NCBI RefSeq assembly: GCF_004010195.1
Contig: NC_057751.1
Location: 2,882,379-2,946,378 of the forward strand
Direction: 5' to 3'
From: Chiloscyllium plagiosum
Taxonomy: Eukaryota
DNA length: 64,000 bases
Of the stretch, positions 8,902 to 63,896 are shown one piece after another (the stretch's first letter is position 1; each line of letters opens with the position of its first letter). A model generated the notes under the pieces. The model was not told where the DNA came from and made no database searches. It was given only the letters and a program-made list of their open reading frames with translations. The position numbers and the translations under genes were made by a program.

Positions 8902-10110
8902 GTTAAAAATCACACAACACCAGGTTATCATCCAACAGGTTTATTTGGAAGCACTAGCTTTCGGAGCGCTGCTCCTTCCTCAGGTGGTTGTGGAGAATAA
9001 GATCGTAAGACACAGAATTTATAGCAAACGTTTACAGTGTGATGTAACGGAAATTATATACTGAAAAAGACCTGGATTGTTTGTTAAGTCTCTCATCTTT
9101 TAGAATGATCATGTTGGTTTCAGTTCTTTCATATGTAAATCGCAAAACTTTTTTAAAAAGTTACATTCTCAAGTGAACTTTAACAATTAGTGTTATGTCG
9201 GCCCAGATAATGTATTGAAGGTGTTAGCTTTCCTGTGTGGGGCTGTCTCTGCCACAATGGTCAGACTGATTCTAATCTAAAAAACAGATTTACAGAATCT
9301 TACATGGATTCATGCAGTTTTTGAGCAAAGTAAAATGTAATTCTGCAAGTACAAATTCACCCCGCAAATTTATATGTGTGTGTGCATGTGTCTGAGTGTA
9401 AAGGGGTTTATGTCTGTGAGTGAGAGAGGGTCTGCGTGAGTGTGTGTGTCTGTCTGTGTGTGTCCATCTGTCTGTTTATGTGTATTGTGCAATGGGGTCA
9501 CCTGTCATGTGACATGAACCCAAGGTCCCATTGAGGCCATCCCCATGGGTACCAAACTTGGCGATCAGCCTCTGCTCGGTCACTTTGCGTTGTTGCCTGT
9601 CCTGAAGTCTGCCTTGCAGGATGGTCACCCGAGGTTGAATGTCCCTGACCGCTGAAGTGTGCTCCAACTGGGAGGGAACACTCCTGTTGTGTCTTGTCCA
9701 TTTATTCATTGCCATAGCCTCTGCTCTGTCTTGCCAATGTACCATGCCTCAGAGCATCCTTGCCTGCAGCGTATGAGAGAGTCAACATTGGCTGAGTCAC
9801 ATGAGTAGCTGCCACATACATGATGGGAGGTGTCCCCACGCATAATGGTGGTATCCATGTCCACACTCTGACATGTCTTGCAGCGTCTACCATGACAGGT
9901 TGTCTGGTATTGTCCTGAAAATCGGGCAGTCTTGCTACGAACAACGATCTGTTTAAGGTTTGGTGGTTGTTTAAAGGCAAGACGTGGAGGTGTGGGGAAG
10001 GTCTTGGCGAGGTGCTCATCCTCATTGATAATGTGTTGCAGGCCGCGAAGAACATGGCTTGGTTTTTCGGCTCCCGGGAAATACTGGACAACGAAGAACA
10101 CCTGGTGTTC
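8902..10110 (-). mobile_element. Penelope-like retroelement, Neptune type, 5'-truncated (GIY-YIG endonuclease, TG microsatellite, pLTR)
   Basis: Minus ORF 9706..10125 has AFKQPPNLKQ, a CxxxxCxxC zinc knuckle, SCDSANV..LIRC and WYIGKTEQRL. ORF 9476..9745 has QRKVTEQRLIAKFGTHGDGLN. TG-rich tract 9375-9485. Hammerhead motif at the 3' end. Confidence 0.92.
8952..8986 (-). ncRNA. Minimal type-I hammerhead ribozyme motif (family A)
   Basis: CAC CUGAGGA A GGAGC-AGC-GCUCC GAAA GC UA|GUG: intact core, 5-bp stem II, CAC/GUG stem I, palindromic AGCU stem III. Confidence 0.8.
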
Positions 10111-10604
10111 CCTGTACACGTACACTCAAGTCCCTCTGAGTGTTTAAGATATTTTCAAGAAACTGTGCAGGAAATTTTTCCCAGTTTTGTTGAAGTGTGA
10201 GGGCAAGCATGTTAGGTGATGCCTAACCTCACCATCCTGATATGTGAGAAAACTCCACCCATCAGCTCACTCAGACATGACCAAAAACGATGGCTGATTT
10301 TCTCAGTGAACCACAGGCCTCCATTCTGGCAATCCAGGTTTCAGAAACTGCTGGCCATTCAGACTCTGGCAGCTCTGGGTCTGAAATGCAGCTGGATCAG
10401 GTTGACTCAGGGGATTTTAATACGTACAACACAGATGGCCTCCTTCTTCAAGGACCGCAATTTCCCCAGGGGATTCACCATTGAAGAGATCCGTATGGAT
10501 TGGGATTTAGAAATGGTTGCAGGCAATGACAGGGGACAACAGCCACATTAGCCTTTGTCTTTCCAAGCCCTCAGATACAGGTCTTCGAATCAGGGGAGTA
10601 TGCA

Positions 10605-11185
10605 GATTTTTATTTGATTCACTTGTGGGCTGGGCAAGCCTTTGTTGGCCGATATCTAGACCAGAGTGGTGCTGGAAAAGCACAGCAGGTCAAGCAGCAT
10701 CCGAGGAGCAGGAAAATCGATGTTTCGGGCAAAAGCCCTTCATCAGGGCCCTGTCTTTGTTGCCCTGTCCCTAGTTGCCCCTTGAGAAGGTGGGGGTGAG
10801 CTGCCTTCTTGATCCGCTGCTGTCTGTGTGCTGTAGGTAGGTAGACCCACAATGCCCTCAGGGAGGGATTCTGACCCAGCAACAGTGAAGGAACAGTGAT
10901 ACATTTCCAAGTCAGGATGACTTGGAGGAGAATTTGCAGGGGATGGTATTCCCATGTATCTGCTGCTCTTGTCCTTCTTGATGATAGCGGCCATGAATTT
11001 GGAAGGTGCTGTCTTAGAATCTGTGGTGAATTGCTGCAGTGCCTCTTGTAGATGGTGCACACTGCTACTACTGAACACCACGGGTGGGGGAGGGAGTGGA
11101 TGCTTGTGGATGTGGTGCCAATCAAGCAGGCTGCTTTCTCCTGGATAATGTCAAGCTTCCTGAGTGTTGTTGGAGCTGCACGTAT
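10605..11185 (-). mobile_element. 3' end of a second LINE family (CR1/L2 group) with a nested Penelope pLTR
   Basis: AAPTTLRKLDIIQEKAACLIG..VVAVCTIYKRHC resembles an RT C-terminus; related sequence recurs at 26590-27320. Confidence 0.7.
10660..10747 (-). mobile_element. Penelope pLTR fragment (family B) with a decayed hammerhead
   Basis: Minus strand CUGAUGA A GGGC UUUU GCCC GAAA CA UC; stem III ACGU has mutated to ACAU. Confidence 0.85.
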
Positions 11186-11579
11186 CGAAGAAATTCCTTG
11201 AGATAGTTTAACAAGACTTTTTTCTCGGATTATATTAATTATGCTCCACAGTATTATTAGTCTCTCCCTTACCCTGTATTTCTGGTGTGTAATTTGTGTG
11301 TTATGCACACAATCCATACGTCAATGTGTCTGCCACTAATCGTTCTCCTGATAATTTCTCTTTTCTGCTCCGAAAGGACAAATGTTAACTTTCGACACTT
11401 TTAGTTCAATATTTGTAATCTGTTTTTAATATTCTTGGCTCTGAGATTCTCAGGGTTTTTTTTCCACTTTATATTCAGCTTCAGATGACCCTTGGTTGAT
11501 TTCTAAAACATTCCCAGCCCTCAAATATATCCCCATTCCTTCCAGCATGATCATCTCTTCTTGTAACCTCATGCTATCC

Positions 11580-11785
11580 GGATGTAAATTTGCTCGCTGA
11601 GCTGGAAGACTTGTTTTCAAACGTTTCGTCACTATACTCGGTAACATCATCATTTGAGCTCACCAGAGACTCACTGATGATGTTCCCTCATATGTGACGA
11701 AAAGTCTGGAAACAAACCTTCCAGCTCAGTGAGTAAACTTACAACCAAAACCTCAACCTGAGCTACAAATTTTCTCAAAAACTCC
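11580..11785. mobile_element. Fold-back Penelope pLTR pair (family E), decayed hammerhead on each arm
   Basis: Inverted arms ttgctcgctgagctggaag..cgtttcgtcac and gtgacgaaaag..ttccagctcagtgagtaa. Plus arm reads UCA CUGAUGA U GUU..GAC GAAA AG UC UG at 11671-11709. Confidence 0.7.
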
Positions 11786-14329: not shown

Positions 14330-15120
14330 ATAGACACATAGGGCTGAAGAGCAGCAGGAGATCTTCATCCCCATGTGCCTGCTCCACATTGAATCAGATC
14401 ATGGCTGACTTGTTTGTGGTCTCAACTCCACTTTCCTGTCTGCCTCCAATAATCCTTGACTCCTTTGTCTTCTGAAAATCTCTGAAACTCAGCCTTGAAG
14501 AATTCAAAGACCCAGCATCAGAGGAAGAGAATTTCACATACAATTAAGTAAGACCTCTCATTCTGAAACTGTATCCCTTCATTCTAGTCTCTCCTGTAAG
14601 GGGGAACATCTTTCCAGAATCTATGTTCTCCATGTTCCTCAGGATCTTATATGTTCAACTCCAGTAGATAAAGGCCTAACCTGTTTGACAGTTCTCCATA
14701 ATATTACCCGTCAGTTCCAGGAATGAGTCTCAACTCTATCCTGCTTCTCCCTCAGTTTTTGAACAAGGAGACCAAAGCTGGACACAGTACTCCAGATGAG
14801 GGTCTCACCAAGGTCCTGGACAATGTAATTTCCTTGCCCTGAGATTCTGTTCCCCTTGCAACAAAGATAGACATTCCATTTGCCTTCGTCATTACTTGTT
14901 GTTTCTGCAAGCTAGCTTTCTGTTTGTCATGGACCAGTTGCTCACCCCATACCTCGGAGTTCTTCATTCTCTCTTCTTCTCTCTCTCTCTCTCTCTCGAC
15001 TTCAACAATATACTGCTTTTCTGTTCACTCTGCCAAAGTTGACAAATACATCTTTTCCCACAATATTCTCAATCTGATCCTTTCGGCCAGTTAATTCAGC
15101 TGTCTATCACTGGGCAACCT
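14330..15120 (-). mobile_element. Old CR1 3' fragment
   Basis: Minus ORF TKANGMSIFVARG..SRTLVRP, followed by a CR1-like 3' UTR. Confidence 0.65.
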
Positions 15121-15159
15121 CTCTGCCTCCCCTTGGCAATTGATTTCCAGCCTTCCACA

Positions 15160-15610
15160 TCCATCAAAGTTTTACCTGCACATCCACCAATATCATTTAT
15201 TGTATCCGTCGCTCCCGAGACTGGGCGCCTCCTAGCAGAGCGCTTTAGGGAACATCTCCAGGACACCCGCACCAATCAACCACACCGCCCTGTGGCCCAA
15301 CATTTCAACTCCCCCTCCCACTCTGCCGAGGACATGGAGGTCCTGAGCCTCCTTCACCGCCGCTCCCTCACCACCAGATGCCTGGAGGAAGAATGCCTCA
15401 TCTTCCGCCTCGGAACACTTCAACCCCAGGGCATCAATGTGGACTTCAACAGTTTCCTCATTTCCCCTTCCCCCACCTCACCTGATGAAGGGCTTTTGCC
15501 CGAAACGTCGATTCTCCTGCTCCTCGGATGCTGCCTGGCCTGCTGTGCTTTTCCAGCACCACTCTAATCCAGAATCTGGTTTCCAGCATCTGCAGTCATT
15601 GTTTTTACCT
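15160..15610 (+). mobile_element. Penelope-like element fragment (GIY-YIG C-terminus plus family B pLTR)
   Basis: FTCTSTNIIYCIR, then ETGRLLAERFREHL..VAQHFNSPSHS..EECLIFRLGTLQPQGINVDF; this links family B pLTRs to a GIY-YIG ORF. Confidence 0.92.
15481..15512 (+). ncRNA. Minimal hammerhead motif (family B)
   Basis: C CUGAUGA A GGGC-UUUU-GCCC GAAA CG UC|GAU; the core is intact but stem I is very short in this copy. Confidence 0.65.
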
Positions 15611-15737: not shown

Positions 15738-15845
15738 GGAGAAAGTGAGGACTGCGGATGCTGGAGATCAGAGTTGACAGTGTGATCAGGCAGCATTCGA
15801 GGAGCAGGAAAATTGACATTTCAGGCATAAGCCCTTCATCAGGAG
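15738..15845 (-). mobile_element. Family B pLTR fragment
   Basis: gagaaagtgaggactgcggatgctggagatcagag...aagcccttcatcagg. Confidence 0.8.
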
Positions 15846-19230: not shown

Positions 19231-19375
19231 TGATGTGGAGGTGGACTGGGGTGGAGAAAGTTAAAAATCACACAACACCAGGTTATAGTCCAACAGCTTT
19301 ATTCGGAAGCACTAGCTTTTGGAGCGCTGCTCCTTAATTCGGTAGCTGCCTGACTAGTGACCTGTGTGATTTTTA
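19231..19375 (-). mobile_element. Family A pLTR fragment with a decayed hammerhead
   Basis: gttaaaaatcacacaacaccaggttatagtccaacag, as at 8902 and 39451; the core is mutated; both flanks read agatttcaaNtgat. Confidence 0.8.
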
Positions 19376-20485: not shown

Positions 20486-20602
20486 TTCCTGATGAAGAGC
20501 TTATGCCTGAAACATCGATTCTCCTGCTCCTCAGATGCTGTGCGTTTCCAGCAACAGACCCTCGACTCTGATCTCCAGCATCTGCAGACCTCACTTTCTC
20601 CT
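20486..20602 (+). mobile_element. Family B pLTR fragment
   Basis: ttcctgatgaagagcttatgcctgaaacatcg...ccagcatctgcagacctcactttctcc. Confidence 0.8.
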
Positions 20603-25280: not shown

Positions 25281-25470
25281 CAGCGTGGTGCTGGAAAAGC
25301 ACAACTGGCCAGGCAGCATCCGAGAAGCAGGAGAATCAAGCGGGAACCCTGATGAAGGGCTCTTGCCCGAGCAGTCAATTCTCCTGCTCCTCGGATGCTG
25401 CCTGATCTGCTGTGCTTTTCCAGCACCACACTCCCGACTCTGATCTCCAGCATCTGCACTCCTCACTTTC
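25281..25470. mobile_element. Family B fold-back pLTR
   Basis: Inverted arms gtggtgctggaaaagcaca / tgtgcttttccagcaccac plus a tail; the hammerhead GAAA is mutated. Confidence 0.85.
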
Positions 25471-27889: not shown

Positions 27890-28420
27890 CTCAGTTTACA
27901 TCTGGAATACTTTGAACAGTTTTGGTCCACTTATCTCAGGAAAGATAGACTGGAGTTGGAGGTGGTCCAGAGAAGGGTTCAATCAGTATGGCTCACGAGT
28001 ATGGAAGGATTGTTTGATGAGGACAGGTTGAGGAGGTTTCGCCTGTACTCACTGGACCAGAAGAATGAGACCTTATTGAAACATACAAGATTCTGAGAGG
28101 ACTTGGCCAGATAGACAGGGAAAGGTTATTCCCTCTTGTAGACCAGAGGTCATCATCTCTTTATCATGCATTGACCATTTCACCAGAGATGAGAAGGAAT
28201 TTCTTCTTTCAGAAGGGAGTGAATCGATGCAATCCCTGTCGACAGAGGGCTGTTGAGGATGGGTCATTATGTATCTTCAAGGCTGAGATAGACCAACTTT
28301 CAATCAGGAAAGGAATTGGCAATTGTGTGGAAAAGCAGGAATGTGGAGATCAGGATTATCAGATCTGGTTAATTGGCAAGGCAGACTGGATGGGCTGAAT
28401 AGCCTCCTGCTCCTACCTTG
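27890..28420 (+). mobile_element. Old CR1 3' fragment
   Basis: HLEYFEQFWSTYLRKD..VVQRR and EMRRNFFFQKGVN. Confidence 0.8.
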
Positions 28421-30496
28421 TTCGACGCATTTCATCTGAAATGCTTGGAGGTATGTCTGAAAGAGGTGAAAGCTCTCACCATTTCATTCATCACAGTCTC
28501 CTCTGCATTCACTGACATGATTTGAATGTTAATTCTCTTTCTGGTTTTGTTTGGATTTGAGGTCAATGTGTGAACTCTCGCTGCTGGTCTCAGAGGGAGG
28601 AAGATTAACTTGAACAGATTGGGTAATAATGCAATGTGTTTGGTTTGAGATTGACCTCAGTCAATTCTGATTAACAAATTACTTCCGATTCTGCACAACT
28701 CAGCCCTGTTTGACCTTATTCAGAGAACACAAGTAAGCTCCTCAGCAGAAAATCGCACTTGACTCTGTAATGATGAAGTGTTTGGGCAGAGGTCGGATTT
28801 CAGTCACTTCATCATTTGTTGTTGAAAGCACAATGTTGCTTCCTAGTGAGGTAGAGTGAGTTTTCAATAAATAACCCATCATGCTGTGATTATGTGTGAG
28901 CAGGCTGTGACCCCTGACTGACCCTAGGCTGGCACTGTCCACCCTGGTGGCCAAGATAGGTGCACTCCATGATAGGTGCCCGCTCCCATCACCACCTCCC
29001 CAGCCTCAGTTAAATTCTGCAGTTTAGCTACAGGACACAAGGTGGGCCTTTCAACGGAGCCTGAAAATCAGACCTGCAATTCCCTCGAGTGGCTTCAAGG
29101 TCAGGCGAAATAGAGCACTTGTATTTCTCCAGCTTCTTTCCGGAGGGTCAGACATCTGTCAATGAACTGTGGTCACTGTTGTCAGGTAGGAAAGATGCTT
29201 ACATCTTTGGACAGCATGCTCCCACGAACAGTCACGCAATCAAGCTCAAATCATCAGTCCGCTGGAGTTAGTCAAAGGATGGCAGGGATCGAAACCTCAG
29301 GGGGCCGTTTTGGTGAATTTTCCTGTTCCTCTGGGACCAACAAAAATAACTGAGTCCCAAATGTTGGGTATAATTCTCATCTTGGCTCGCCTGTGGAACC
29401 GCACACCCCAAGCCTAGCCCAGTTCAGGTCCACAGTGGCACGACTCTCCATGTCCACACAAGAAAGGCTCTTGTTTGCTGAAACTGACGTGTAGTTGCAC
29501 GTTCTCACTGGAGCCCCCCTTTTAACGTGGAGATTATTATATTAAGGACTCGACTGCTCTCTCCCACACCAATCTGTTCAGACACATTTGATGGATTTCC
29601 GAGTTTCATGTGTGATTGACCCGACCTCACGGATTGTAAAAGTCAGTCTTGAATGTTGTGAACAGGCTGCAAAGGTAAAATTATGAGGACAGGTTAGATA
29701 GACCAGGTTCATGTTCCTTCAGTTGAAGAATTAAATGTTAAAGGGCTGATCAAATCAAGATGTTCAACTAAAGGATTTGATGACTCAATCAAGTGAAACG
29801 ATTTCCTTTGTGATGGAGAGAGACCAGAACAAAGAGCCAGTTTTTGACTTTTAAATGTGAACGAGTCCATTCAAGGGTGAGGGCAGAAAGCACACTTCAC
29901 ACAAAAACGGAGTGGAAATCTGCAATCCCCTCCCTCCCTCCCTCCTTCCCAAGCCTTCGATGAAAACCTCAAGGGCTGGGGTTCAATGGAAAACTCCGTT
30001 TTTGCTGTGGAAGGAGATGAAGGTTGACAGAACTGAGGTGGGGAGAATGGGTTGAGGTACAAATGACACAAGATGGAATTAGATTCAGATGAGATTGAGG
30101 TTTATTGTCACATGTGCTCAGGTGTGGGGTACAAACAAACAGTGGACAATGTCACCATTCCTGACACTATCTTAGATACAAAGGTATCAAAGTACAAAAT
30201 CTTTAGTACAGAAATGGAAACGTAAAGAGATCATTTTAAAAAGCACAGCAGTTTCTTCCTTGGATAAAAGTAGAAACAAAGAAATTAGTTATTAAAAACC
30301 TGACAGTCCTTTGTTAAGCCATGTTTCTGTGGCCGAGCAACAAAGTTGTGGAGTTTAATGTGCTTGTCCTGTCACTATGAACTACCACCAAGTCATCCTT
30401 GAGCCCATTACTGTCCAAGAATTCCTGAAAATTAACCCCAATGAACTGTGAAGGTAACTCCCAATGTGCAATCCAGCCCCTACTCCTGGAAAACTA

Positions 30497-30744
30497 AAAG
30501 AGAAAATGCTGGAAAATCTCAGCAGGTCTGGCAGCATCTGTAAGGAGAGAAAAGAGCTGACGTTTCGAGTCTAACTGACCCTTTGTCAAAGCTATAAAAA
30601 GGGAGAAATAGGGAGGTAAGGGTCAGTTAGACTCGAAACGTCAGCTCTTTTCTCTCCTTACAGATGCTGCCAGACCTGCTGAGATTTTCCAGCATTTTCT
30701 CTTTTGGTTTCAGATTCCAGCATCTGCAGTAATTTGCTTTTATT
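30497..30744. mobile_element. Young fold-back Penelope pLTR insertion (family C) with 11-bp TSD
   Basis: Apparently perfect inverted arms (30497-30583 vs 30618-30704); TSD ctggaaaacta at 30486-96 and 30745-55. Confidence 0.92.
30555..30593 (-). ncRNA. Minimal hammerhead with U3-A8 variant core (family C)
   Basis: AGCU UUGACAA A GGGUC-AGUUA-GACUC GAAA CG UC|AGCU. Confidence 0.75.
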
Positions 30745-31189
30745 CTGGAAAACTATGTCGCTGGATCTTTAGAAATGCGCAGCCTGGGACCACTGTCCAT
30801 GAGGTGATAATTCTCCTCAACTTCACTTCAACAGATAAGCATCAATCAAAAAAACAAAGGGTTACTGTCAATACACGTGTTTGGTGAAAGTTCATCACAC
30901 ACTTCTGTCATCTGAGAGCTTGGATTCAAAAGTGAAAGCACTGCTTTCAGGTTGATTTGTACATCCACGTTGAGTGTTAAGGAAGAGGAAGTGGGCGGGC
31001 TGAACCTGGTCAGGTTTTGTGAGGCTGAATGAGCTTCCTCGCACTGTCATCCCCAATGACTTCACTGACTGCTAAAAACATCTCAATGGTACCCCTCTCT
31101 TCTGACATATCTTGGATTCTAACATCTTTCCCAAAATGGAATAATTTTTGAACTGGGTGCTGCTGCCAATTGTTAACCCCAGTGACAGT

Positions 31190-32370
31190 GATTTACCAGG
31201 ATGTTCTGAGACTGGAGATTTTGAGTTGGAAGGAGAGGTTAGATAGCCTAGGACCTTGTTCCCTGCAGAGGCGGAGGCTGAGAGGTGACCATGCCGAGGT
31301 TTATAAATTCAGGAGGGGCATAGAAAATGTAAACAGCGAAAGTCTTTTTCCCCAGTACGGGAGTCCAATAACCAGTAGTGCTCCACAAGGATCTGTTCTA
31401 GGGCCTCTGCTCTTTGCGGTTTTTATAAATGACTTGGATGAGGAACTGTTAAGGGTGGGTTAGTAAGTTTGCTGACGACATGAAGGTTGGTGGAGTGGTG
31501 GATAGTGTGGAAGGCTGTTGGAGTTTGCAATGGGACATTGACAGGATGCAGAACCAGGCTGAGAAGTGGCAGATGGAGTTCAACCTGGAAAAGTGTGAAG
31601 TGATTCATTTTGGAAGGTTGAATTTGAACACAGATTACAGGGTTAAAGGCAAGATTCTTGGCAGTGCAGAGGAACAGAGGAATCTTGGGTTGAACATCCA
31701 TAGATCCCTCAGAGTTGCCACCCAGGTTGATAGGGTTGTTGAGAAGGCGTATGGTGTGTTGGCTTTCATTCTCAGGGGAACTGAGTTTAAGAGCTGAGAG
31801 ATTATGCTGCAGCTTTGTTGAGTCCTGGTTAGACTACACTTGGAACATTGTGTTCAGTTTTGTTCACCTCATTATAAGAAGGATGTGGAAGCTTCAGCGA
31901 GGATGCAGAGGAGATTTACCAGGATGCTACCTGGACTGGAGGGAATGTCTTTTGAAGAAAGGTTGAGGGAGCTCGGGCCTTCCCCATTGGAGTGCAGAAG
32001 GATGAAAGGTGACTTGATAGAGGTGTACAAGATGATGAGAGGCAGAGATAGAGTCGATAGCCAGAGACTTTTTCCCAGGGCGGAAATGGCTGTCTCGAGG
32101 GTTTATAATTTGAAGGCGATTGGAGGAAGGTTTAAGGGAGATGTGAGAGGTAGGTTCTTTGCACAGAGAGTGGTGGGTATGTGGAATGCACTGCCAGCAA
32201 TGTAGTAGAGTCAGGGATATTAGGGACATTTCAGTGATACTTGGATAGTGGTAAAATGGAGGGTATGTCGGTTAGTCTTAGATCTTAGAATTGAATAAAT
32301 GGTTGGCATAACATCGAGGGCCAAAGGGCCTGTACTGTGCTGTGCTATACTGTTCAATGTGCTATGTTCC
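31190..32370 (+). mobile_element. CR1 fragments: an older piece 31190-31350 joined to a younger RT/3' UTR
   Basis: PQGSVLGPLLFAVFINDLDE, WQMEFNLEKCEVIHFG, FAQRVVGMWNALP. Confidence 0.92.
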
Positions 32371-32957
32371 CAGACTTGCTGAGCTTTTCCAGCAGTTTCA
32401 GTGTATGTTTCTGATTTCCAGCCTCCGCAGTCCCTCTGGTTTGATTAGTTCCTCTAGGGATTTGATTGTTGCTGGTTCCTGCGCTGTGATGGTGGCAGGT
32501 TGTTTAAAGCCTGTGCTCTTAAAGAGGTGATGTGACACTTGCTCTTTCTTGTGAGACAAGCTGTCTGCTCTTCCCCAAGTCTACCAGAGAGCCTGTCAAA
32601 CGCTGAGCCTGCTTTTGCCTGCAGGCAAAGTGGTTCATTTTCTCATCCAACTTGGTGTTATTGGAAAAATTTACTTGCAAGAACCTCTGTCTGGAACAAA
32701 AGGGTGTGTTGGTCAATTGTGAACTTGGAGTGTGTGGGTGATACAAGATGTCTGCTATCTCCAGGCCAAGATTTGCTGAGGCTGGGGCACAGTGATCAAC
32801 AGACAACTGAATTGCCTTCCAGAGTTTGTGCAAAAAGATAACAGATATCCGGCAAAAAGATTTCACTCAGTAACTGTTCATAAACCTTTGTCCCAGCTTT
32901 GAGGTTTTGCAAGTTGAAGGTGTTGTGGTTCTGTTCGCCGAGCTGGATATTTTTGTT

Positions 32958-32997
32958 GCAAACGTTTCGTCCCCTGTCTAGGTGACATCCTCAGTGC
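32958..32997 (-). ncRNA. Minimal hammerhead (family D), left arm
   Basis: GCA CUGAGGA U GUCaCCU-AGAC-AGGgGAC GAAA CG UU|UGC. Confidence 0.75.
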
Positions 32998-33447
32998 TTG
33001 GGAGCCTCCTGTGAAGCGCTTCTGTGGTGTTTCCTCCAGCATTTGTAGTAATTTGTATCTGCCGTTTCCGGTTGTCAGTTTCAGCTGTCCACAGTAGTGG
33101 CCGGTATATTGGGTCCAGGTCGATGTGTTTGTTGATGGAGTTTGTGGATGAGTGCCAAGCTTCTAGGAATTCCCTGGCTGTTCTCTGTTTGGCTTGTCCT
33201 ACAATGGTAGCAACATGAATTCGACTGGGACAACACTACCATTATAGGACAAGCGAAACAAAGAACAGCCAGGGAATTCCTAGAAGCATGGCACTCATCC
33301 ACAAACTCCATCAACAAACACATTGACCTGGACCCAATATACCGGCCACTACTGTGGACAGCTGAAACTGACAACCGGAAGCGGCAGGGACAGGCCACGA
33401 GAAATGCCGGAGGAAACATCACAGAAGCGCTTCATAGGAGCTCCCAA

Positions 33448-33487
33448 GCACTGAGGATGTCACCTAGACAGGGGACGAAACGTTTGC
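33448..33487 (+). ncRNA. Minimal hammerhead (family D), right arm
   Basis: Identical motif on the plus strand. Confidence 0.75.
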
Positions 33488-36102: not shown

Positions 36103-36109
36103 AGTGCAA

Positions 36110-36890: not shown

Positions 36891-37699
36891 TTAAAGTCTC
36901 TGGAGGAATTGTTTGATTATAAAGAATCTTCTGTATGTTCCACTGACTAAAACTACTTCTGGAAATGATTTAAATTGGGACAAAACATTCTGGAAGTGTG
37001 GAAATATACAAAGCGAAGATATGGACAAGACAAAAAAACATATCAACTCTGTCCACGACAGTCTCCTGTCTTGAAATCTTCTGACGTGGCCTGCTTTTAC
37101 ATTCTGAATGATGATATTCCTGGAGCTGATTTATGATGTTCAAGGTTCTGTATAAATCCAAGCAGTACATCATTGTGTTTGTTCCATATTCCCACCCCAC
37201 ATATTGTCAGGCAGGTCCTACCGGTGTTAGGATGAGGTGTGAGCTCTGTCACTTCCCGGAATTGTCTGAAGAATGGATGATAAAAGAACTGAAATGTAAT
37301 TTTCAAGAAGAGGATGAGAAGGGGACTGTAAGCAAGCCAGATAAAGGAGAGACAGAGACATGACTGTAGGCACTCGGGTGTGAAGGGATAAAAGGATTAG
37401 GCTTTAGAGAACTAGACAGTCAACGTGTATTGGGTGTAAATCTTATTTAATTGTGCAGACAGACATGAGGTGTTTCAGCATAGAGACATCTTAAACCTTT
37501 AAACACATTGTTGCTAGCACAGTTAGTTTACTCGCTGACGATCAGAGAGCACGGAGACCCACAGAAATTGCAGTTTATTCCTTGCTCTGTACTGAGGCTT
37601 TGCTGATCTTAGTTTCAGCTGATATCGAAAAGGAAGAAGACTTGTACTTCTGCTTTGGTTGTGTTGACATCACAGGTTAAATTCCATATTGCAGAAGCA

Positions 37700-38000
37700 T
37701 CATTTTGTTCTGAACGTGCCTGACAATGTGATAGCGAGCAGGTAAGCTGGATTTTGCTCTGTTGATTGAGGGATAAGTATCGTCCAGGAGAATGCTGATA
37801 AAATTGTGACATGGAATCTTTCATATTCACCTGAAGAGACACATGGGTCATTGGTTTTCTGTCACATCTGAAAGGTGGCACCTCCCACAGCACTGCACCG
37901 AACTGACAACCTCCGTTTATGTGCTGTAGCTTTGGAGTGGGATTTGAACCAGGGACCATGTAGCTGAGAGTTGACGGTGTTACCCACTGAGCTGTTACCA
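37700..38000 (-). mobile_element. Deu-domain tRNA-derived SINE
   Basis: Minus strand: A-box-like agctcagtgg, B-box ggttcaaatccc, then a body similar to 41925 and 46225. Confidence 0.6.
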
Positions 38001-39409
38001 ATACATTGATCTGATTCTCTATTGAAGCCTTTTACAATACCAGGATATCTCCGTCCATCCGTCAACAACAACTTGCCATCTGTTGAAGGTGTTGAGTATA
38101 GTTACACATCTTATGAGGCTTTCTGAGAGTTATCCAAAAGAATTTGACAGTGAACCGCAGGGACATCAGGAGAAGTACCCGAAACTTGGTGAAAAGTGTA
38201 GGTTAAAAGGAGAACCTTAAAGAGCAGAGAGAGCTAGGGATGCTGAGAGGTTCATGGAAGGAAGTGAATTTCGAGCAGAAATGAAAGTGAGGGTCAGGGA
38301 CAGTATCTAGTTGAAAAATTGAAGGAATCTGAGGATATATCCTTGGGCAACATGAGGAGTAATGTTGCAGGAACATAAAGGGAATCCTTTGCAAGAGATT
38401 CTCTGGGTACACTTAGATCCAAGTGGAACCAGCTGAGTGCGAGAACCAATAAAGAGCTTTTTGATCTGCAGTGTTACAGGGAATGCTGTTGTGAAATGGT
38501 GTACAGCAAGATCCCATCAACAGCATTGAGCTCAGGAGCAGGTCATCTGCATTTTATTGATGTTTATTAGGGTGCAGTACAACACAACTGAGCAAGAGCA
38601 AGGCAAATAGAAATAGCAACAGGTTCTCTTTTTGTGTTGTCTTGGCCTGTGAAAATGCTGCATCTGAATTCCCTTTGTTAACTGACCCCAAGGTAGCTGG
38701 TCAAGTACAAAATTTAACATGAATCCTTGCCTTGATTGGAACTTCATTGACAGAAGGCAGCATGAGATATACTTCCTTCCTTCCTGCCTGCAAGCCCCCA
38801 TCACCCAGCAATCTCTCTTTCTCTTCTTGTGAAAACAAGAATCAAATGAATGACCATCCTTTTGGAAAGGAATACCGTAGCTTCTCTTCAACAGAAACAC
38901 GTTTTAATGATGAAACATAATGGTTAGTAAATTTGCAGATGACATGGAAATTGGTGGTGTGGTGGACAGTGAAGAAAGTTAAGTCAGAATATAGAGTACC
39001 TCAGAGGATCTTGGGTCAGATGGGCCAATGGGCTGAGGAGTGGCAGATGGAGTTTAATTTAGATAAATGCGAGGTGCTGTATTTTGATAAAGCAAATCAG
39101 GGCAGGACTTATATACTTAATGGTAATGTCCTGGGGAGTGTTGCTGAACAAAGAGACCTCGGAGTGCAGGTTCATAGCTCCTTGAAAGTGGAGTCGCAGG
39201 TAGATAGGATAGTGAAGGCAGCGTTTGGTATGTTTTCCTTTATCGGTCAGAGTATTGAGTACAGGAGTTGGGAGATCATGTTGCGGCTGTACAGGACATT
39301 GGTTAGGCTACTGTTGGAATATTGCATGCAATTCTGGTCTCCTTCCTATTGGAAAGATGTTGTGAAACTTGAAAGGGTTCAGAAAAGATTTACAAGGATA
39401 TCACCAGGG

Positions 39410-39540
39410 TTGATGATTTGGAGATGTCGGTGTTGGACTGGGGTGCACAAAGTTAAAAATCACACAACACCAGGTTATAGTCCAACAGGTTTAATTGGAA
39501 GCACACTAGCTTTCGGAGCGACGCTCCTTCATCAGGTGAT
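39410..39540 (-). mobile_element. Family A pLTR inserted in CR1
   Basis: Splits the CR1 sequence ccagggttg|gagggtttgag; matches 8902-8990. Confidence 0.9.
39504..39538 (-). ncRNA. Minimal hammerhead (family A), second intact copy
   Basis: CAC CUGAUGA A GGAGC-GUC-GCUCC GAAA GC UA|GUG; differs from the 8952 copy only at N7 and loop II. Confidence 0.8.
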
Positions 39541-40424
39541 TGGAGGGTTTGAGCTCGAGGGAGAGGCTGAACAGGCTGGAGCTGTTTTCCCTGGAGCGTT
39601 GGAGGCTGGGGGGGGGTGACCTTATAGAGGTTTATAAAATCATGCAGGCACGGACAGGGTAAATAGACAAAGTCTTTTCCCTGGGGTCAGGGAGTCCAGA
39701 ACTAGAGGGCAGAGGTTCAGGGTGAGAGGGGAAAGATTTAAAAGAAACCTAAGGGGCAATGTTTTCACACAGAGGGTGGTGTGTGTATGGAATGAGCTGT
39801 CAGAGGAAGTGGTGGAAGCTGGTACAATTACAACATTTGAAAGGTATCTGGAAGGGTATATGAATAGGAAGGGTTTGGAGGGATATGGGCTAAGTGCTGG
39901 TAAATGGGACTAGGTTGGGTTGGGCTATCTGGTCAGCATGGATGGGTTGGACCAAAGGGTCTGTTTCTGTGCTGTACATCTCTATGACTCTGTGAGTGGC
40001 CTGAATTGGAGCTTATTGATTGGAAGTGTGATTCTGGGATTGATAATGAACTCCAATTCCTCTGGTACCCACTTGCTGTAGAAGGCTTCGAGCTTACCCA
40101 TTCCCCGTGGAGACCACATGCTCCTTTTTCAAGGGCATCCAGGCTACAGAGAATCAGAGAGATGAGGTGGACAATCAAATTGTAAGCAGCCAGGAGCAGA
40201 CGTACATGAAGGTTCATTGATGTTCCCCTGTACTCTGACTTTCAGTATGAGGCTATAGGGTAAAGTGAGGGACAATCGCTTTGAAATAACTGCTGGTATT
40301 CCATCACCAAGTCAGCAGATCTTCTAGTGACCAACCAGCTTGGAGTCAGCTCTCGACTGAGGAAGTTCTGATCCCCTGTTCAGATTGGTCAGTCTGCGCT
40401 TTCCTGCTTGGCTCGGGTTAATAA

Positions 40425-40509
40425 GAAAAGGGCTTATGCCCGAAACGTCGATTCTCCTGTTCCCTGGATGCTGCCTGACCTGCTGCGCTGTTCCAGCAAC
40501 ACATTTTCA
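40425..40509 (+). mobile_element. Family B pLTR piece with 14-bp TSD, inside a reversed LTR fragment (about 40282-40570)
   Basis: gctcgggttaataa at 40411-24 and 40510-23. Confidence 0.88.
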
Positions 40510-40717
40510 GCTCGGGTTAATAAACCCAATCATTGGCCCCATAATCAACCAGGTCCAGCTGGTCCCAAGCACTGCTCTCCTCACACTGGGGCTCCCACCT
40601 CACATGACAACACAGAATGGTGGAACATGTACTCCTCAAGGCTACCAATGATTTTGTCCTGTCATTAATGCAGGTTAATTCACTGGGTACGCTTGGTCAT
40701 CACTGGGTATGCTTTGT

Positions 40718-45365: not shown

Positions 45366-45988
45366 TCATAGAGTCATAGAGATGTACAGAACGGAAACAG
45401 ACCCTTCGGTCCAACCCATCCATGCCGACCAGACATCCCAAACCAATTTCGTCCCACCTGCCAGCACCCAGCCCATATCCCTCCAAACCCTTCCTATTCA
45501 TATACACATCCAAATGCCTCTTAAATGTTGCAATTGTACCAGCCTCCACCACTTCCTCTGGCAGCTCATTCCATACACGTACCACCCTCTATGTGAAAAA
45601 GTTGCCCCTTAGGTCTCTTTTATATCTTTCCCCNNNNNNNNNNNNNNNNNNNNNNNNNNNNNNNNNNNNNNNNNNNNNNNNNNNNNNNNNNATAGTCCAA
45701 CAGTGGCCTAACCAATGTCCTGTACAGCCGCAACATGACCTCCCAACTCCTGTACTCAATACTCTGACCAATAAAGGAAAGCATACCAAACGCTGCCTTC
45801 ACTATCCTATCTACCTGCGACTCCACTTTCAAGGAGCTATGAACCTGCACTCTCTTTGTTCAGCAACACTCCCTCGCACCTTACCATTAAGTGTATAAGT
45901 CCCCTGCTAAGATTTGCTTTCCCAAAATGCAGCACCTCACATTTATCTGAATTCAACTCCATCTGCCGCTTCTCAGCCCATTGGCCAG
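45366..45988 (-). mobile_element. CR1 3' fragment spanning a gap
   Basis: QVHSSLKVESQVDRIVKAAFGML and VRVWNELPEEVVEA; tail ctatgactctatgac. Confidence 0.93.
45634..45690. other. Assembly gap (57 N)
   Basis: Run of N. Confidence 1.
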
Positions 45989-46520: not shown

Positions 46521-47270
46521 CACAAATTCACATCTTTATTCAATTTCAGCAGCCCAGACATTTGGAAGTGACAGAAACTGCGATTTGACAGATCAAATCC
46601 TAGAATTCCCTCGATCCCTGGGAACAGGATTCAAACACAGGCCGTGCAGATGGAAGGAGAGAGATCAAGTCCCCTTCTGAAATAGAATGAGGAGGACAGC
46701 ACTGGTAACCACTGGGGTTTGATTGAAAGAGAGAGAGAGAGAAAGTCTTGCTTTGCTTCAGTACCACTCAGTGCTTCCCAGAGTTCTGTACAATTACTGG
46801 AACAGGCAAACTGATGGTAACCACACTGCAAAACAGACACTGCTGGAGAAGCTCAGTATGTCAGGTGTCATCTGTAGGAAGACATCAGAGTTATCTCAGC
46901 AGACCTGCTGAGTTTCTCTGGCAACTTCTGCCGTCATTTCAGACCTCCAGCGTCCTCATTCCTTTGTTGTAGTTTATTCTCTGTCGGATCCTGTTGTGTG
47001 CAATTTGGTTCCTGCATTTTCTGCATTTGATAAAAATGCTTAATTAGTGAAGCATTTGTGGAGCTGCTGGGCTTGTGAAAGCAGTGAAATTTTTCGTCTC
47101 TCTCTTGGTTGATGCCATGTGTGGCTGAAGCCTGATTGAAGGAGACACGGGGTGAGTAGAGCCTGTGGTTTACAAATCAACAAGAGGACAGGAGAGAAAA
47201 GGACAATCAGCTCAGGTTTCATGTAAAACACGATATCAGTAGTGAACAAACAGCTGCCCTGACCCGATAC

Positions 47271-47462
47271 AGAGCTGAAAAATGTGTTGCTGGAAAAGCG
47301 CAGCAGGTCAGGCAGCATCCGAGGAGCAGGAGAATCAATGTTAGGGCTTATGCCCGAAACGTCGATTCTCCTGCTCCTTGGATGCTGCCTGAGCTGCTGC
47401 GCTTTTCCAGCAACACATTTTTCAGCTCTGACCTCCAGCATCTGCAGTCTTCACTTTCTCCA
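47271..47462. mobile_element. Family B fold-back pLTR with degenerate TSD
   Basis: Inverted arms plus a 32-nt tail; flanks gacccgatacagagc and gacctgataccgagc. Confidence 0.88.
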
Positions 47463-48577: not shown

Positions 48578-49077
48578 NNNNNNNNNNNNNNNNNNNNNNN
48601 NNNNNNNNNNNNNNNNNNNNNNNNNNNNNNNNNNNNNNNNNNNNNNNNNNNNNNNNNNNNNNNNNNNNNNNNNNNNNNNNNNNNNNNNNNNNNNNNNNNN
48701 NNNNNNNNNNNNNNNNNNNNNNNNNNNNNNNNNNNNNNNNNNNNNNNNNNNNNNNNNNNNNNNNNNNNNNNNNNNNNNNNNNNNNNNNNNNNNNNNNNNN
48801 NNNNNNNNNNNNNNNNNNNNNNNNNNNNNNNNNNNNNNNNNNNNNNNNNNNNNNNNNNNNNNNNNNNNNNNNNNNNNNNNNNNNNNNNNNNNNNNNNNNN
48901 NNNNNNNNNNNNNNNNNNNNNNNNNNNNNNNNNNNNNNNNNNNNNNNNNNNNNNNNNNNNNNNNNNNNNNNNNNNNNNNNNNNNNNNNNNNNNNNNNNNN
49001 NNNNNNNNNNNNNNNNNNNNNNNNNNNNNNNNNNNNNNNNNNNNNNNNNNNNNNNNNNNNNNNNNNNNNNNNNNNNN
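48578..49077. other. Assembly gap (500 N)
   Basis: Run of N. Confidence 1.
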
Positions 49078-52274: not shown

Positions 52275-52405
52275 TGTTGTGGTTGTGTTCGCCGAGCTGG
52301 GAATTTGTGTTGCAGACGTTTCGTCCCCTGTCTAGGTGACATCCTCAGTGCTTGGGAGCCTCCTGTGAAGCACTTCTGTGCTATTTCCTCCAGCATTTAT
52401 AGTGG
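52275..52405 (-). mobile_element. Family D pLTR
   Basis: Near-identical to 32921-33050. Confidence 0.9.
52312..52351 (-). ncRNA. Minimal hammerhead (family D) with GUC cleavage triplet
   Basis: GCA CUGAGGA U GUCaCCU-AGAC-AGGgGAC GAAA CG UC|UGC. Confidence 0.8.
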
Positions 52406-52653
52406 TCAGAAATGATCAGGCCACTGACTGAACTTCATTCATTACCCATGGCCTGTTCTCCATTTACCAGCTAACAACCAGGGGAGCTGAGTATGTCCAA
52501 CAACATCAGACTCTTAGAGTTTATAAAGACAGGAATTGATTTCATTGGACTAACAGCACAGAAAAATACCATTCGGCCCAACCAGTCCATGTTGGTGTTT
52601 GAGCTCTGTTTCAGCCTCCTCCATTGTTTATCACCTCATTCTATCATCATCTC

Positions 52654-53180
52654 CAAAGTTTGTGAGAAGATTTGTAGCTTGGGTGCTCATTGTTCCCATG
52701 CAAGGACTGCACGAAACACTATACAGGACAAACAGGAAGACAGCTAACGATCCGCATCCATGAACACCAACTAGCCACGAAATGACACAACCAGCTATCC
52801 TTAGTAGCCACACACGCAGACGACATGCAACATGAGTTTGACTGGGACAACACTACCATTATAGGACAATCCAAACAGAGAACAGCCAGGGAATTCCTAG
52901 AGGCATGGCGCTCATCCACAGGTTCTATCAATAAGCAGATCGACCTGGACCCAATATACCGGCCACTGCAGTGGACAGCTGGAACTGACAACCGGAAGCG
53001 GCAGGTACAAATCACTATAAATGCCGGAGGAAACATCACAGAAGTGCTTCACAGGAGGCTCCCAAGCACTGAGGGTGTCACCTAGACAGGGGACGAAAGG
53101 TCTGCAACACAAATTCCCAGCTCGGCGAACAGAACCACAACAACGAGCACCCGAGCTACAAATCTTCTCCCAAACTTTGA
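52654..53180 (+). mobile_element. Family D Penelope fragment (GIY-YIG plus pLTR) preceded by an inverted tail
   Basis: PCKDCTKHYTGQTGRQLTIRIHEHQ..HEFDWDNTTIIGQSKQRTAREFLEAW. The hammerhead at 53066-53106 has two substitutions (A9 and stem III). 52654-52694 is the reverse complement of the 3' tail. Confidence 0.92.
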
Positions 53181-54527: not shown

Positions 54528-54782
54528 TGAGTCAAAAAGTGTGGCGCTGAAAAACTACAGGCAGTCAGGCAGTATCTGAGGAGCAGGAGAGTCGACGTTA
54601 CGGGCGTATGCCCTTCATCAGGAATGTGGGTGGGTGGGGGGCTTCCAAGGGGTCTGAGAGATACATGGGAGGGGGATGCAGCCGGGGGGCAGGTAGCTTG
54701 CAATGTGGTAGGTAGATGCAGGCGGGGGGGGGGTGATGGTGACAGGTTGGAGTGGAGGGTGGAGTGGACAGGTGGGAAGTTT
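54528..54782 (-). mobile_element. Family B pLTR with C-rich 3' UTR
   Basis: Minus strand cacattcCTGATGAagggcatacgcccGTAAcgtcga; GAAA is mutated. Confidence 0.8.
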
Positions 54783-55129: not shown

Positions 55130-56050
55130 TCCTTTGGGAAAGATTGCCTTAGCTTGGGCAGGACTTATACACTTAATGGTAAGGTCCGAGGGAGTGTTGC
55201 TGAACAAAGAGACCTTGCAGTGCAGATTCATAGCTCCTTGAAAGTAGATAGGATATGTATTTGGGAGAAAGTGAGGGCTGCAGATGCTGGAGATCAGAGC
55301 TGAAAATGTGTTGCTGGAAAAGCGCAGCAGGTCAGGCAGCATCCAAGGAACAGGAGAATCGACGTTTCGGGCATAAGCCCTTCTTCCTGAAGAAGGGCTT
55401 ATGCCCAAAACGTCGATTCTCCTGTTCCTTGGATGCTGCCTGACCTGCTGCGCTTTTCCAGCAGGATATGTATTTGGGTATGCTTTCCTTTCTTGGTCAG
55501 AGTATTGAGTACAGGAGTTGGGAGGTCATGTTGTGTCTGTACAGGACATTAGTCAGGCCACTTTTGGAATATTGCATTCAGTTCTGGTTTCCCTCCTATC
55601 AGAAGGATGTTGTGAAACTTGAAAGGGTTCAGAAAAGATTTACAAGGATGTTGCCAGGGTTGGAGGGTTTGAGCTCGAGGGAGAGGCTGAACAGGCTGGG
55701 GCTGTTTTCCCTGGAGCGTTGGAGGCTGGGGGGTGACGTTATAGAGGTTCATAAAATCATGAGGCGCATGGATAGGATAAATAGACAAGGTCTTTTCCCC
55801 GGGGTGGTGGAGTCCAGAACTAGAGGGTGAGAGGGGCAAGATTTAAAAGGGACCTAAGGGGCAACGTTTTCACACAGAGGGTGGTGCGTGTATGGAATGA
55901 GCTGCCAGAGGAAGTGGTGGAGGCTGGTACAGTTACAGCATTTAAAAGGCATCTGGATGGGTATATGAATAGGAAGGGTTAAGGGGGATATGGGCCAAAT
56001 GCTGGCAAATGGGACTAGATTTATGTAATATACCTTGCTGGCATGGACAG
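55130..56050 (+). mobile_element. CR1 3' fragment interrupted by a Penelope fold-back
   Basis: GRTYTLNGKV..QRDLA and LYRTLVRPLLEYCIQFW. Confidence 0.92.
55266..55462. mobile_element. Family B fold-back with 16-bp TSD
   Basis: aggatatgtatttggg at 55250-65 and 55463-78. Confidence 0.93.
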
Positions 56051-62155: not shown

Positions 62156-62186
62156 TCACCGTTGTCGAACTGTTAATGCTGTCGAG

Positions 62187-62317
62187 GTAAAAACAATGAC
62201 TGCAGATGCTGGAAACCAGATTCTGGATTAGAGTGGTGCTGGAAGAGCACAGCAGTTCAGGCAACATCCGAGGAGCAGCAAAATCAATATTTCGGGCAAA
62301 GGCCCTTTGTCAGGAAT
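62187..62317 (-). mobile_element. Family B pLTR, subfamily of 15481-15610
   Basis: gtaaaaacaatgactgcagatgctggaaaccagattctggattagagtggtgctggaa is the reverse complement of 15551-15608. Confidence 0.88.
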
Positions 62318-63828
62318 GCTGTCTGCCTTTCAGACACCTGTAACAACTGCTTTATCCACATTGTTGCACAGAATCCTATTCTATCTCTCACCCAGTCAGA
62401 CAGTACTATCCTCTCTCATCCATGACAATTTAAAGCCTCATATCACTAGCCGACAGAGAGTGAGGATCCTACTGAGTGGAGACCACTCTTTCTGAGGAAG
62501 CTCAAATGCTTGAGGCTTCACAGTTGTATGACTCAACAGATCATTGTCGGTGTTATTGGTGTGAACCAGAAACTGTACTGTTTGTCCTTTTTGGCAAAAT
62601 ATGCATGTCTGTCAACAGTGTTCTCCAGAAAGGTTTTGTGTGATGTGAGTCAGATTGTGGGAAGATTCTGAAGGTCCTCCGGGGTTGGCAATTCTGTGTT
62701 GGCAACAGTATGGTCAAACCGTTTGTGCTCTTCCCCTCAGGTGCACACCTGGAAGCGGAGTGTCACACAGGACTGGAAGTACACAAGGTCTTGTGTCAGA
62801 CTGGGTCAATGTGGCCCCACCTGAGCCAGAGATTGCACATTGAAGTCTCACTCCAGGATTCGATGGCCACAGACACTGTGTTCACAACCTGGCCAAGCAG
62901 AATGAGTATTAGTGTGTAAATCCTTCCAACCTGCCTGAGGCAGCAGCTGTGTCAGTGTGTGTGTCGGTGTATGTCTGTGTGCGTGCAGAGGGCAGCGTCC
63001 TGGTCAGCTTAAAGCAGAGGGTGACTGCAGCCCAACAGCCTCTCCATGGTTAAAACCTCCACACGCAGGTTACTGCCCTGGGCTGTACTGAATGCAGATT
63101 GCCCCCTACATTTGGAGGAGCTATCAGAAGGTAGAAGGCTGGGAGCCATGACACAGGTGATGGTCCACATTGACTGAGGACCACGTGCAAACATTTTGTT
63201 TGGCTGCTCTCCATCCACACGTAGGGGAGCTGTATTCTGTCGGAGAGTGCACAGGAGCAAGCCAACAAGATGGAGGCTTCTCCTTCTGGGGTCTGCCATC
63301 TTCCTTTTCAGGGGTTCACAAGCTGCAAGGCTGATTCAACTGTTCACCTGAGGAGCATCATTGTTCCAACAGCCGAACCAAGTGTCATCAAACACAACGG
63401 AGCTAGGAATAATCAGGGGCCAGCTATTTCATTGGAATGCTGAGCCAGCTGACATTGGTTTCGGCCTCAATGCAGGAATTTTACACCGGGATTGCGGCAT
63501 GTCTGGAGGGGCAGAGGGTGAGGGGTTCAAATCAAATCAAGTTCACTGCGAAACAAGGAAGAGATTGAAAGTGATGGTCACCAATAAGATGGGCCAAACA
63601 ACCTGGCACACAGCCACTGTGGAGATTCAGTCAGGCACGGACAAAATAAAATGTTCCCATATTGAGGAAGTCATCCTTGTTCTTATACTAAGTACTTTAT
63701 TCACTCTGTATGCCATTGTGCAACTACTCAATGAGGAGAAAGTGAGGACTGCAGATGCTGGCGATCAGAGCTGAAAATGTGTTGCTGGAAAAGCGCAGCA
63801 GGTCAGGCATCGTCCAGGGAACAGGAGA

Positions 63829-63862
63829 ATCGACGTTTCGGGCATAAGCCCTTCTTCAGGAA
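63829..63862 (-). ncRNA. Minimal hammerhead (family B), left arm
   Basis: UUC CUGAAGA A GGGC-UUAU-GCCC GAAA CG UC|GAU. Confidence 0.7.
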
Positions 63863-63896
63863 TTCCTGAAGAAGGGCTTATGCCCGAAACGTCAAT
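63863..63896 (+). ncRNA. Minimal hammerhead (family B), right arm
   Basis: UUC CUGAAGA A GGGC-UUAU-GCCC GAAA CG UC|AAU; the first stem I pair is disrupted. Confidence 0.55.

Follow-up and report, generated by a model that had tools for sequence, protein, structure and literature searches.

Minimal hammerhead ribozymes (min-HHRs) have been described in the pseudo-long terminal repeats (pLTRs) of metazoan Penelope-like elements (PLEs), where they cleave at low levels and only as dimers (Cervera & de la Pena 2014, PMC4209133). Dimer cleavage was also found by Lunse et al., as cited in a review (PMC6765202). For the anole Poseidon element PAc, protein-assisted cleavage, internal reverse transcriptase (RT) starts that define a tail, and insertion from uncut RNA in vitro have been reported (Frangieh et al. 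2024, PMC11167929), and the function of PLE hammerheads in general has been called unclear (Craig et al. 2021, PMC8557442). TATA and initiator motifs have already been noted in the pLTRs of rotifer elements, and in D. virilis an internal promoter that lacks a TATA box has been described. Here, we analyzed a 64,000-nt stretch of the Chiloscyllium plagiosum genome (NC_057751.1, positions 2,882,379 to 2,946,378), referred to below as the window, in which five Penelope-like families, A to E, had been predicted to share one covarying hammerhead. We conclude with high confidence that the motifs are type I min-HHRs in the pLTRs of PLEs, as the carrier elements demonstrate for A, B, and D and as is likely for C and E.

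The motif was found at 10 of 10 predicted places, and it comprises CUGANGA (or UUGACAA), one extra base, stem II, GAAA, two bases, UH, and a short stem I (positions are counted from C3). The core is complete (11/11) in A, B, D, and E, while C deviates solely by a U3-A8 pair; G5, G12, A9, A13, and A14 are present in every family. Stem I consists of 2 to 4 bp with three pair types at 2.1-1.1, and in B 2 bp are followed by U.U, in keeping with type I topology. Helix II has 4 to 5 bp in A to C. Helix III is absent, and the palindrome at 15.2-16.2 reads ACGU in B, C, and D and AGCU in A. Several named copies are damaged. All three B copies carry the motif, but only the one at -63859 is intact: in the copy at 15481, downstream of an internal deletion, the native 5' strand of stem I is gone (AC in place of UC, leaving 1 bp), and at 63866 an A at 1.1 leaves a stem I of 0 bp. 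In the E copy at +11674, the palindrome is broken by an A at 15.2. Family C has the predicted motif, but its core is the U3-A8 variant and not C3-G8, with A8 in all of the first 100 genomic matches listed. Five types were indeed seen, but kinship of their tails, the sequence behind the hammerhead, reduces them to about three independent lineages (A; B/C; D/E). Tails of B and C are 72 to 77% alike and those of D and E 71%; in a 70-letter comparison, 46 (B/C) and 50 (D/E) letters were identical, versus 36 to 37 after shuffling, and the tails of A, B/C, and D/E stood at shuffle level against one another. Despite these unrelated tails, 9 to 11 of 11 core positions are identical between lineages.

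Covariation was evaluated by scripted pair counts on core-anchored natural copies, one per family. Stems differ and pairing is kept, as predicted: at pairs that vary, 36 of 40 cells form a base pair, against a shuffle mean of 21.0 (0/20,000 shuffles), and both partners of eight pairs change among the five families. Restricting the count to a single copy from each lineage gave 19 of 21 paired cells (8/20,000 shuffles), and extending it to 11 types gave 92 of 99; because the shuffle ignores relatedness and good motifs had been selected, the probabilities should not be read as exact. The catalytic 3-8 pair itself covaries, from C-G to U-A in family C. The comparison of core with flanking pLTR, proposed as a test of the prediction, showed the core of B to be better kept. 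Among 194 B copies, a second letter reached at least 10% in 0 of 21 non-CpG columns of the core, stems, and extra base versus 22 of 92 tail columns (Fisher P = 0.012, a contrast inflated by CpG-related tail columns); N7 and loop II do vary. In family A (n = 41), the contrast between core and tail was not clear. Two-sided pair changes and the B contrast together support the proposed selection on the fold in active lineages, which here means three lineages and a motif that also overlaps a reading frame in D/E. CpG columns of the motif depart in 15 to 29% of B copies; the constraint therefore acted on master elements, not on inserted copies.

A motif this short could arise by chance in a repeat-rich genome, and an Rfam scan of the window gave no hammerhead model among 24 matches at E ≤ 10. 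We compared a sample of 1.197 Mb of non-N sequence (the window plus six 200-kb blocks of the 3.56-Gb genome) with its reversed sequence, using a descriptor that leaves the features under test free. The sample gave 113 matches and the control 13. The single extra nucleotide after A9, predicted for every family, was borne out in 98 of the 113 matches versus 1 of the 13 controls, and G10.1-C11.1 occurred in 70 versus 3. A stem I of at least 2 bp was present in 68 sample matches and the palindrome in only 62, the latter because of CpG decay. All five features coincided in 31 sample matches and in no control match. A looser scan of the window alone yielded 7 matches at its strictest core setting (shuffle mean, 0.43; maximum, 4); when the core was relaxed in two ways, its counts did not clearly exceed those of shuffles (7 versus a maximum of 6; 2 versus a maximum of 3). 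Genome-wide, exact patterns covering A to D matched 64,690 times (B, 45,844; A, 10,183; D, 7,377; C, 1,286), with 0 matches for the reversed patterns; E-like copies are known from the sample. Extrapolating the sample rate (31 per 1.197 Mb) to the genome would give ~90,000 complete motifs. The estimate of about 20 motifs in the window also stood, with, by our reading, 24 copies retaining most of the motif, 12 passing the descriptor, and 7 showing all five features. Chance is refuted by these counts and by the covariation, and the motif has a fixed place at PLE ends; we attach practically no weight to a chance origin.

The sample also contained at least three further min-HHR types, F (extra G), G, and H (stem II of 6 to 7 bp), at L144:15-52, L142:8255-8290, L167:2983-3024, and L151:7841-7882. 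Long H-type copies carry TATAAATA ~50 nt upstream. The word TTCCAGC is common to the otherwise unrelated tails of B, C, D, and E (e.g., window 15547-15553 and 33497-33504); in B and C it resembles a branch point plus 3' splice site, and it could be an RT-binding or start signal.

The Penelope-like origin of the carriers was examined family by family, with clade labels (Neptune for A and B, Penelope/Poseidon for D) that rest on domain features and not on an RT tree. Among four A loci from genome searches, two (L309 and L312) have a same-strand hammerhead in both pLTRs, and between the hammerheads lie RT, a CX4CX2C linker, and a GIY-YIG endonuclease, all frameshifted or gapped. The family A RT scored above the Pfam RVT_1 cutoff in 2 of 3 frames, and its top Atlas match was an HTH_animal/RVT_1/GIY-YIG cluster. 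The open reading frame (ORF) of A begins at an ATG at +120, leaving the hammerhead outside. Within the window, the A hammerhead lies ~700 nt downstream of a broken linker/GIY-YIG frame with 75% identity to the RT-bearing frame of locus L106. In B and D, the hammerhead directly follows same-strand GIY-YIG-type ORF ends. The B endonuclease was at or above the Pfam cutoff in 2 of 2 cases, the CX4CX2C linker recurs in B (L081), and an RT thumb region was recognized by eye in L108. In D, an endonuclease-like frame (VVYKIPC..YIGQTGR..REFLEAWHS) without the linker precedes the hammerhead; its Pfam GIY-YIG match is weak (E of 0.04 to 0.06 in 2 of 4), and the RT core was not recovered. A stop codon in stem II terminates this D frame, and A9, the extra U, and G10.1 together form an ATG from which another frame runs through the tail, an arrangement also described for the anole Poseidon element. 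The extra U sits in such an AUG in D, E, and H, and the frame stays open through the D tail. For C and E, the predicted origin holds less firmly; tail kinship plus one family C RT fragment, 44% to A (L038), point to it. Pfam found no GIY-YIG domain in the window's own broken frames, and no unbroken full-length ORF was found in the gapped assembly. Sample copies contained no 5' pLTR-to-ORF joint for any family; for A alone, such joints emerged through a protein search.

Copies of all families show 5' truncation, a head-to-head inverted copy, and two 3' ends 30 to 40 nt apart. An inverted head-to-head partner within 1.5 kb accompanies 97 of 194 B copies (versus 22 tail-to-tail) and 24 of 41 A copies (versus 0), and 6 of 8 D copies have a head-to-head partner; 44 of the 194 B copies have a same-strand neighbor. 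Two family C copies, G000:C1:17926859 (L038) and G000:C2:74574795, have an identical 7 letters upstream, which in L038 join the hammerhead to the RT fragment; this may reflect a recurrent template switch or a deleted subfamily. In family A variants with CUGAUGA (e.g., 39535, minus strand), the core AUG opens an 8-codon upstream frame ahead of the ATG at +120, and its stop is a UAG spanning the cut site.

To locate copy ends, copies were chosen by their tail and not by the hammerhead and were aligned to long natural copies, those below 78% identity being dropped. Their 5' ends pile up at the hammerhead edge. Ends at -19 to +10 from C3 account for 126 of 194 B copies and 22 of 41 A copies, with 16 and 5, respectively, beyond -100. 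The share ending per 10 nt at 0 to -9 was 0.59 in B and 0.46 in A, compared with 0.04 to 0.08 upstream of -30 in B. Thirty tail-picked family C loci behaved similarly when scored by eye (18 begin at the edge, 5 inside, and 7 upstream; some are two arms of one insertion). The 126 short B copies divide into 66 with an inverted arm upstream and 60 solo copies. Exact target-site duplications of at least 8 nt flank 21 of the 60 solo copies, versus 0.55 in mismatched pairs, and their 5' ends are therefore true insertion edges; only four solo copies share upstream sequence, so the edge is not that of a hidden subfamily.

Long copies carry promoter-like motifs upstream of the hammerhead. TATAAAT is found at -40 in 7 of 8 long A copies (at -36 in the other) and at -35 to -37 in 3 of 3 long C copies. 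Four of 10 A loci begin at an A 32 nt below TATAAAT, and the edge lies ~32 nt below the box in A and C alike. Long B copies have TTATCT at -34/-36 and an initiator-like TCATTC/TTATTC. In family D, TATAAAT is at -53. Two B subfamilies with different flanks keep TTATCT at the TATA position, and its reverse is a GATA-type site. Directly ahead of the AGCU edge, family C has a C in 39 of 100 cases, well above G (13). A 3' splice site (pyrimidine run plus AG) as the cause of the C edge was considered and rejected, no shared upstream exon appearing in 100 listed joints.

Poly(A) RNA reads of one run (X19), whose source species is uncertain, were aligned to an A copy. The RNA is mostly sense, and depth is unbroken over the predicted cut. 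Non-templated A tails occur at +55/+58 (276 and 330 reads), 12 to 15 nt after AATAAA/ATTAAA and upstream of a GU-rich stretch. Genomic A copies extend beyond this poly(A) site, to ~+85 or +120 (the ORF ATG); the polyadenylated 3' end therefore lacks the sequence at which RT starts, which is found in the 5' untranslated region (UTR) or in read-through RNA. Family B reads came from both strands without strand bias, and neither their starts nor their ends piled up; the existence of two B subfamilies confounds the loose ends at -4.

One reading of the genomic copies that span the cut site, and of the reads that cross it unbroken, is that cleavage in vivo is slight or absent and that the fold persists because it serves pairing, protein binding, or overlapping coding. 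The AUG at the extra U in D, E, and H, the open D tail frame, and the upstream D frame that stops in stem II would suit overlapping coding. In addition, anole hammerhead mutants still insert in vitro (PMC11167929), and some PLE clades have no hammerhead while its function is unclear (PMC8557442). Yet the 3-8 pair covaries, and the invariant G5, G12, A9, A13, and A14 are retained in every family; the family A hammerhead stands outside the ORF; and the anole ribozyme, which cuts with protein, requires C3 and G8 (PMC11167929). On balance, we find it unlikely that the fold persists with so little cleavage. Even less credible is a use of the dispersed copies by the host as active ribozymes in its transcripts, despite the ~65,000 exact-pattern copies on both strands and the B reads on both strands of poly(A) RNA. 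Core and stem CpG positions decay in B, complete copies make up only 7 of 24 in the window, partners are mostly head to head and so leave one sense hammerhead per transcript, and no pile of read ends marked the cut, although this last is a weak test. We judge host use very improbable; the window copies are likely inert insertion remnants.

The explanation that we consider probable overall is that the motifs are min-HHR sequences of PLE pLTRs, predicted to cut only if two copies pair by their four-base palindrome, and that the window copies are inert remnants of insertions. The core, stems I and II, and the self-complementary ACGU/AGCU that replaces helix III are all kept across lineages with unrelated flanks. 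By analogy with published relatives, cleavage after position 17 would be slow and would need a second hammerhead and probably an element protein, and such paired-hammerhead cleavage seems reasonably likely. In the Neptune-type families, the pLTR transcript would begin right at the hammerhead, ~30 nt downstream of a TATA-type box, and in the one RNA run the family A poly(A) tail follows ~28 nt behind an uncut hammerhead. RT would then start in the tail of the 5' pLTR, just ahead of the start codon, and mostly run off the uncleaved RNA 5' end, which would yield a mass of 90- to 130-nt copies, often two per insertion and head to head. Read-through, a template jump, or a cut-and-ligated circle would account for the longer copies. 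For the LTR-like U3-R-U5 layout and for short copies as cDNAs of uncut 5' ends, we put the chances at slightly below even. More tentatively, the Neptune-type pLTR may parallel the retroviral arrangement in full: a TATA box and start, an R made of hammerhead plus poly(A) signal, and a U5-like tail up to the start codon. The short copies, hundreds of thousands in number, might then be integrated "strong-stop" cDNAs of capped uncut RNA primed in the tail, and a dimer-only hammerhead might pair both R copies, so that cut-and-ligation or a template jump would let an RT without RNase H pass from the 5' to the 3' end. Copy ends predict, at base level and within 130 nt of one pLTR, where transcription and RT start and where cleavage and polyadenylation take place, so that it becomes testable whether cleavage serves full-length copying or is bypassed.

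Several observations weigh against this explanation. A direct pLTR pair was not seen for B, C, D, or E, B and D being found only in the 3' pLTR. Family B is without a canonical TATA box, and family D is without a pile-up (5 of 8 copies chosen by their tail extend beyond -100, and 8 of 10 loci chosen by the hammerhead extend beyond -75). The 5' peak is 30 nt wide rather than a single base. A cap-derived G is suggestive in B, where the base before ATTCC was G in 68 and A in 32 cases (background, 39% G; hand count); many of these G letters stem from the inverted arm or a duplication, and we do not count them as support. In C such a G is absent (base before the edge, C 39, A 48, and G 13 of 100; hand count). 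The family A poly(A) RNA may be host read-through, and a 30-nt cleaved 3' piece would be invisible in a poly(A) run. Finally, thermodynamic folding favors neither the hammerhead nor the dimer (z of -1.9 to +0.3; cofold), as expected when the helix is intermolecular and has only 4 bp.

The broad peak, the cap-derived G unseen in C, and the lack of a peak in D would also fit a pile-up that is not a transcript start and is caused by RT stalling, folding back, or switching template on leaving the hammerhead, or by amplified short non-autonomous masters. The head-to-head partners of B and A copies, often with palindromic joints such as AGCT, point in the same direction, as does the pyrimidine-rich sequence immediately upstream in B and C; head-to-head palindromes have been explained by self-priming (Arkhipova 2013, PMC3846280). 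However, RT meets the 3' side of the stems first and should stop there if structure were the block, and the peak lies past the whole motif; the common distance of the edge from TATAAAT in A and C also speaks against it. A single short master does not account for an edge that recurs, with varied joints, in A, in C, and in two subfamilies of B. We regard an origin of the pile-up other than at a transcript start as possible but doubtful.

The coordinates of the features are collected in Table 1. The window is rich in fragments of long interspersed nuclear elements (LINEs), presumably CR1/L2-like where they encode RT, and several hammerhead copies are inserted in them. The microRNA-like Rfam matches were dismissed as fold-backs of head-to-head copies; the long hairpins of such copies could give double-stranded RNA upon read-through. 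Assembly gaps often fall inside inverted or full-length PLE insertions, in the window as in loci L101-L128, and create false long open frames; the long "open frames" at genomic matches proved to be runs of N.

Table 1. Hammerhead copies and associated features (window positions unless a locus is named)
Feature	Position	Strand	Description
Family A, C3	8983, 39535	-	
Family B, C3	15482; 63859; 63866	+; -; +	
Family C, U3	30589	-	
Family D, C3	32994; 33451; 52348	-; +; -	
Family E, C3	11674	+	
Neptune-type PLE 3' end	8902-10125	-	Broken linker/GIY-YIG frame 9706-10125, CA-rich spacer, TATAAAT 9017-9023, hammerhead, AATAAA 8940-8945, short tail
Family A min-HHR	8952-8986	-	Intact; stem I 3 bp, stem II 5 bp, AGCU palindrome; predicted cut after 8955
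Family B copy	10655-10747	-	Short, decayed; inserted upstream of family A remnant
Family E pair	11580-11783	both	Head to head, both decayed (+11674, A at 15.2; -11653, A at position 3); D kin
Family B copy	15043-15610	+	GIY-YIG C-terminal frame, internal deletion, hammerhead 15481-15510 with broken stem I, long tail
Family B copy	15739-15844	-	Decayed
Family A copy	19232-19338	-	Cut inside core
Family B copy	20486-20600	+	Decayed
Family B pair	25282-25470	both	Head to head, decayed
Family C insertion	30490-30743	both	Head to head; minus arm, intact U3-A8 hammerhead 30555-30593; plus arm begins inside core
Family D insertion	32921-33563	both	Head to head; intact hammerheads 32958-32997 (-) and 33448-33487 (+); Poseidon-type endonuclease C terminus 33211-33405
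Family A copy	39415-39547	-	Short, intact hammerhead 39504-39538 plus long tail, within LINE fragment
Family B copy	40428-40513	+	Begins inside core
Family B pair	47270-47460	both	Head to head, joined within hammerhead
Family D insertion	52275-53180	both	Second head-to-head insertion; intact hammerhead 52312-52351 (-), decayed at +53069
Family B copy	54536-54629	-	Decayed
Family B pair	55265-55463	both	Short copies, head to head
Family B copy	62183-62318	-	Short, decayed, with target-site duplication
Family B pair	63736-63956	both	Short copies, head to head; -63859 intact (predicted cut after 63832), +63866 stem I broken
L309 family A hammerheads	2062 and 5765		3.7 kb apart
L312 family A hammerheads	1797 and 5354		3.6 kb apart
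LINE-type RT fragments	1197-6799, 28069-32205, 35871-39619, 55444-55830, and others		Pfam RVT_1 in two frames tested
Head-to-head hairpins	30536-30665, 33154-33292, 47261-47438, 55337-55437, 63833-63892		Score weakly as microRNA precursors (Rfam)
Assembly gaps	45634-45691, 48578-49077		

Every feature listed in the original prediction is a published hallmark of PLE min-HHRs (PMC4209133). The ribozymes described there are likewise of type I without helix III, with a palindromic 15.2-16.2, one nucleotide between 9 and 10.1, and G10.1-C11.1. They also occur as several covarying families per genome, mostly in single truncated copies with close opposite-strand pairs, and include a U3-A8 variant. 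Against ~4,000 in coelacanth and 9,000 in Xenopus, the present genome gave 64,690 exact-pattern matches, although search methods differ, and the helices of A to C are shorter (helix I, 2 to 4 bp; helix II, 4 to 5 bp). The accessible text of that paper names no cartilaginous fish and maps no transcript ends. Our literature search found no description of the U3-R-U5-like layout; the supplements of PMC4209133 and PMC11167929, subscription papers, and Repbase lay outside it, so the families, host group, or layout may be described there.

PAc (PMC11167929) is alike in its pLTR hammerhead, in two 3' ends 30 to 40 nt apart (the tail), and in templates that are apparently uncut. Its ribozyme was assayed, whereas cleavage is predicted for the present hammerheads. 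The ATG of family D, at the start of stem II, lies 28 nt before the predicted cut versus 26 nt in PAc; in contrast, that of family A lies 120 nt downstream of C3, which places the hammerhead in the 5' UTR. For PAc, the accessible text describes neither a pile-up of 5' ends nor polyadenylation behind the hammerhead. Neptune and Penelope/Poseidon PLEs (Craig et al. 2021, PMC8557442) resemble the carriers in RT plus C-terminal GIY-YIG, 5' truncation, partial tandems, an inverted 5' copy, and a tail, and the CX2-5CxxC linker described there is present in A and B and absent in D. Animal non-LTR retrozymes (bioRxiv 10.64898/2026.07.22.740005; PMC7229834), for which one chondrichthyan was sampled, also have a type I hammerhead and are PLE-derived, short, non-coding units. 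We rejected this identity: retrozymes form head-to-tail tandem arrays, whereas the copies here are dispersed kilobases apart or head to head and lead back to coding PLE ends. The families found here extend a class that was described in 2014, and their genome carries an unusually large load of it; in the literature searched, neither the pile-up of 5' ends at the hammerhead edge nor the LTR-like layout was found.

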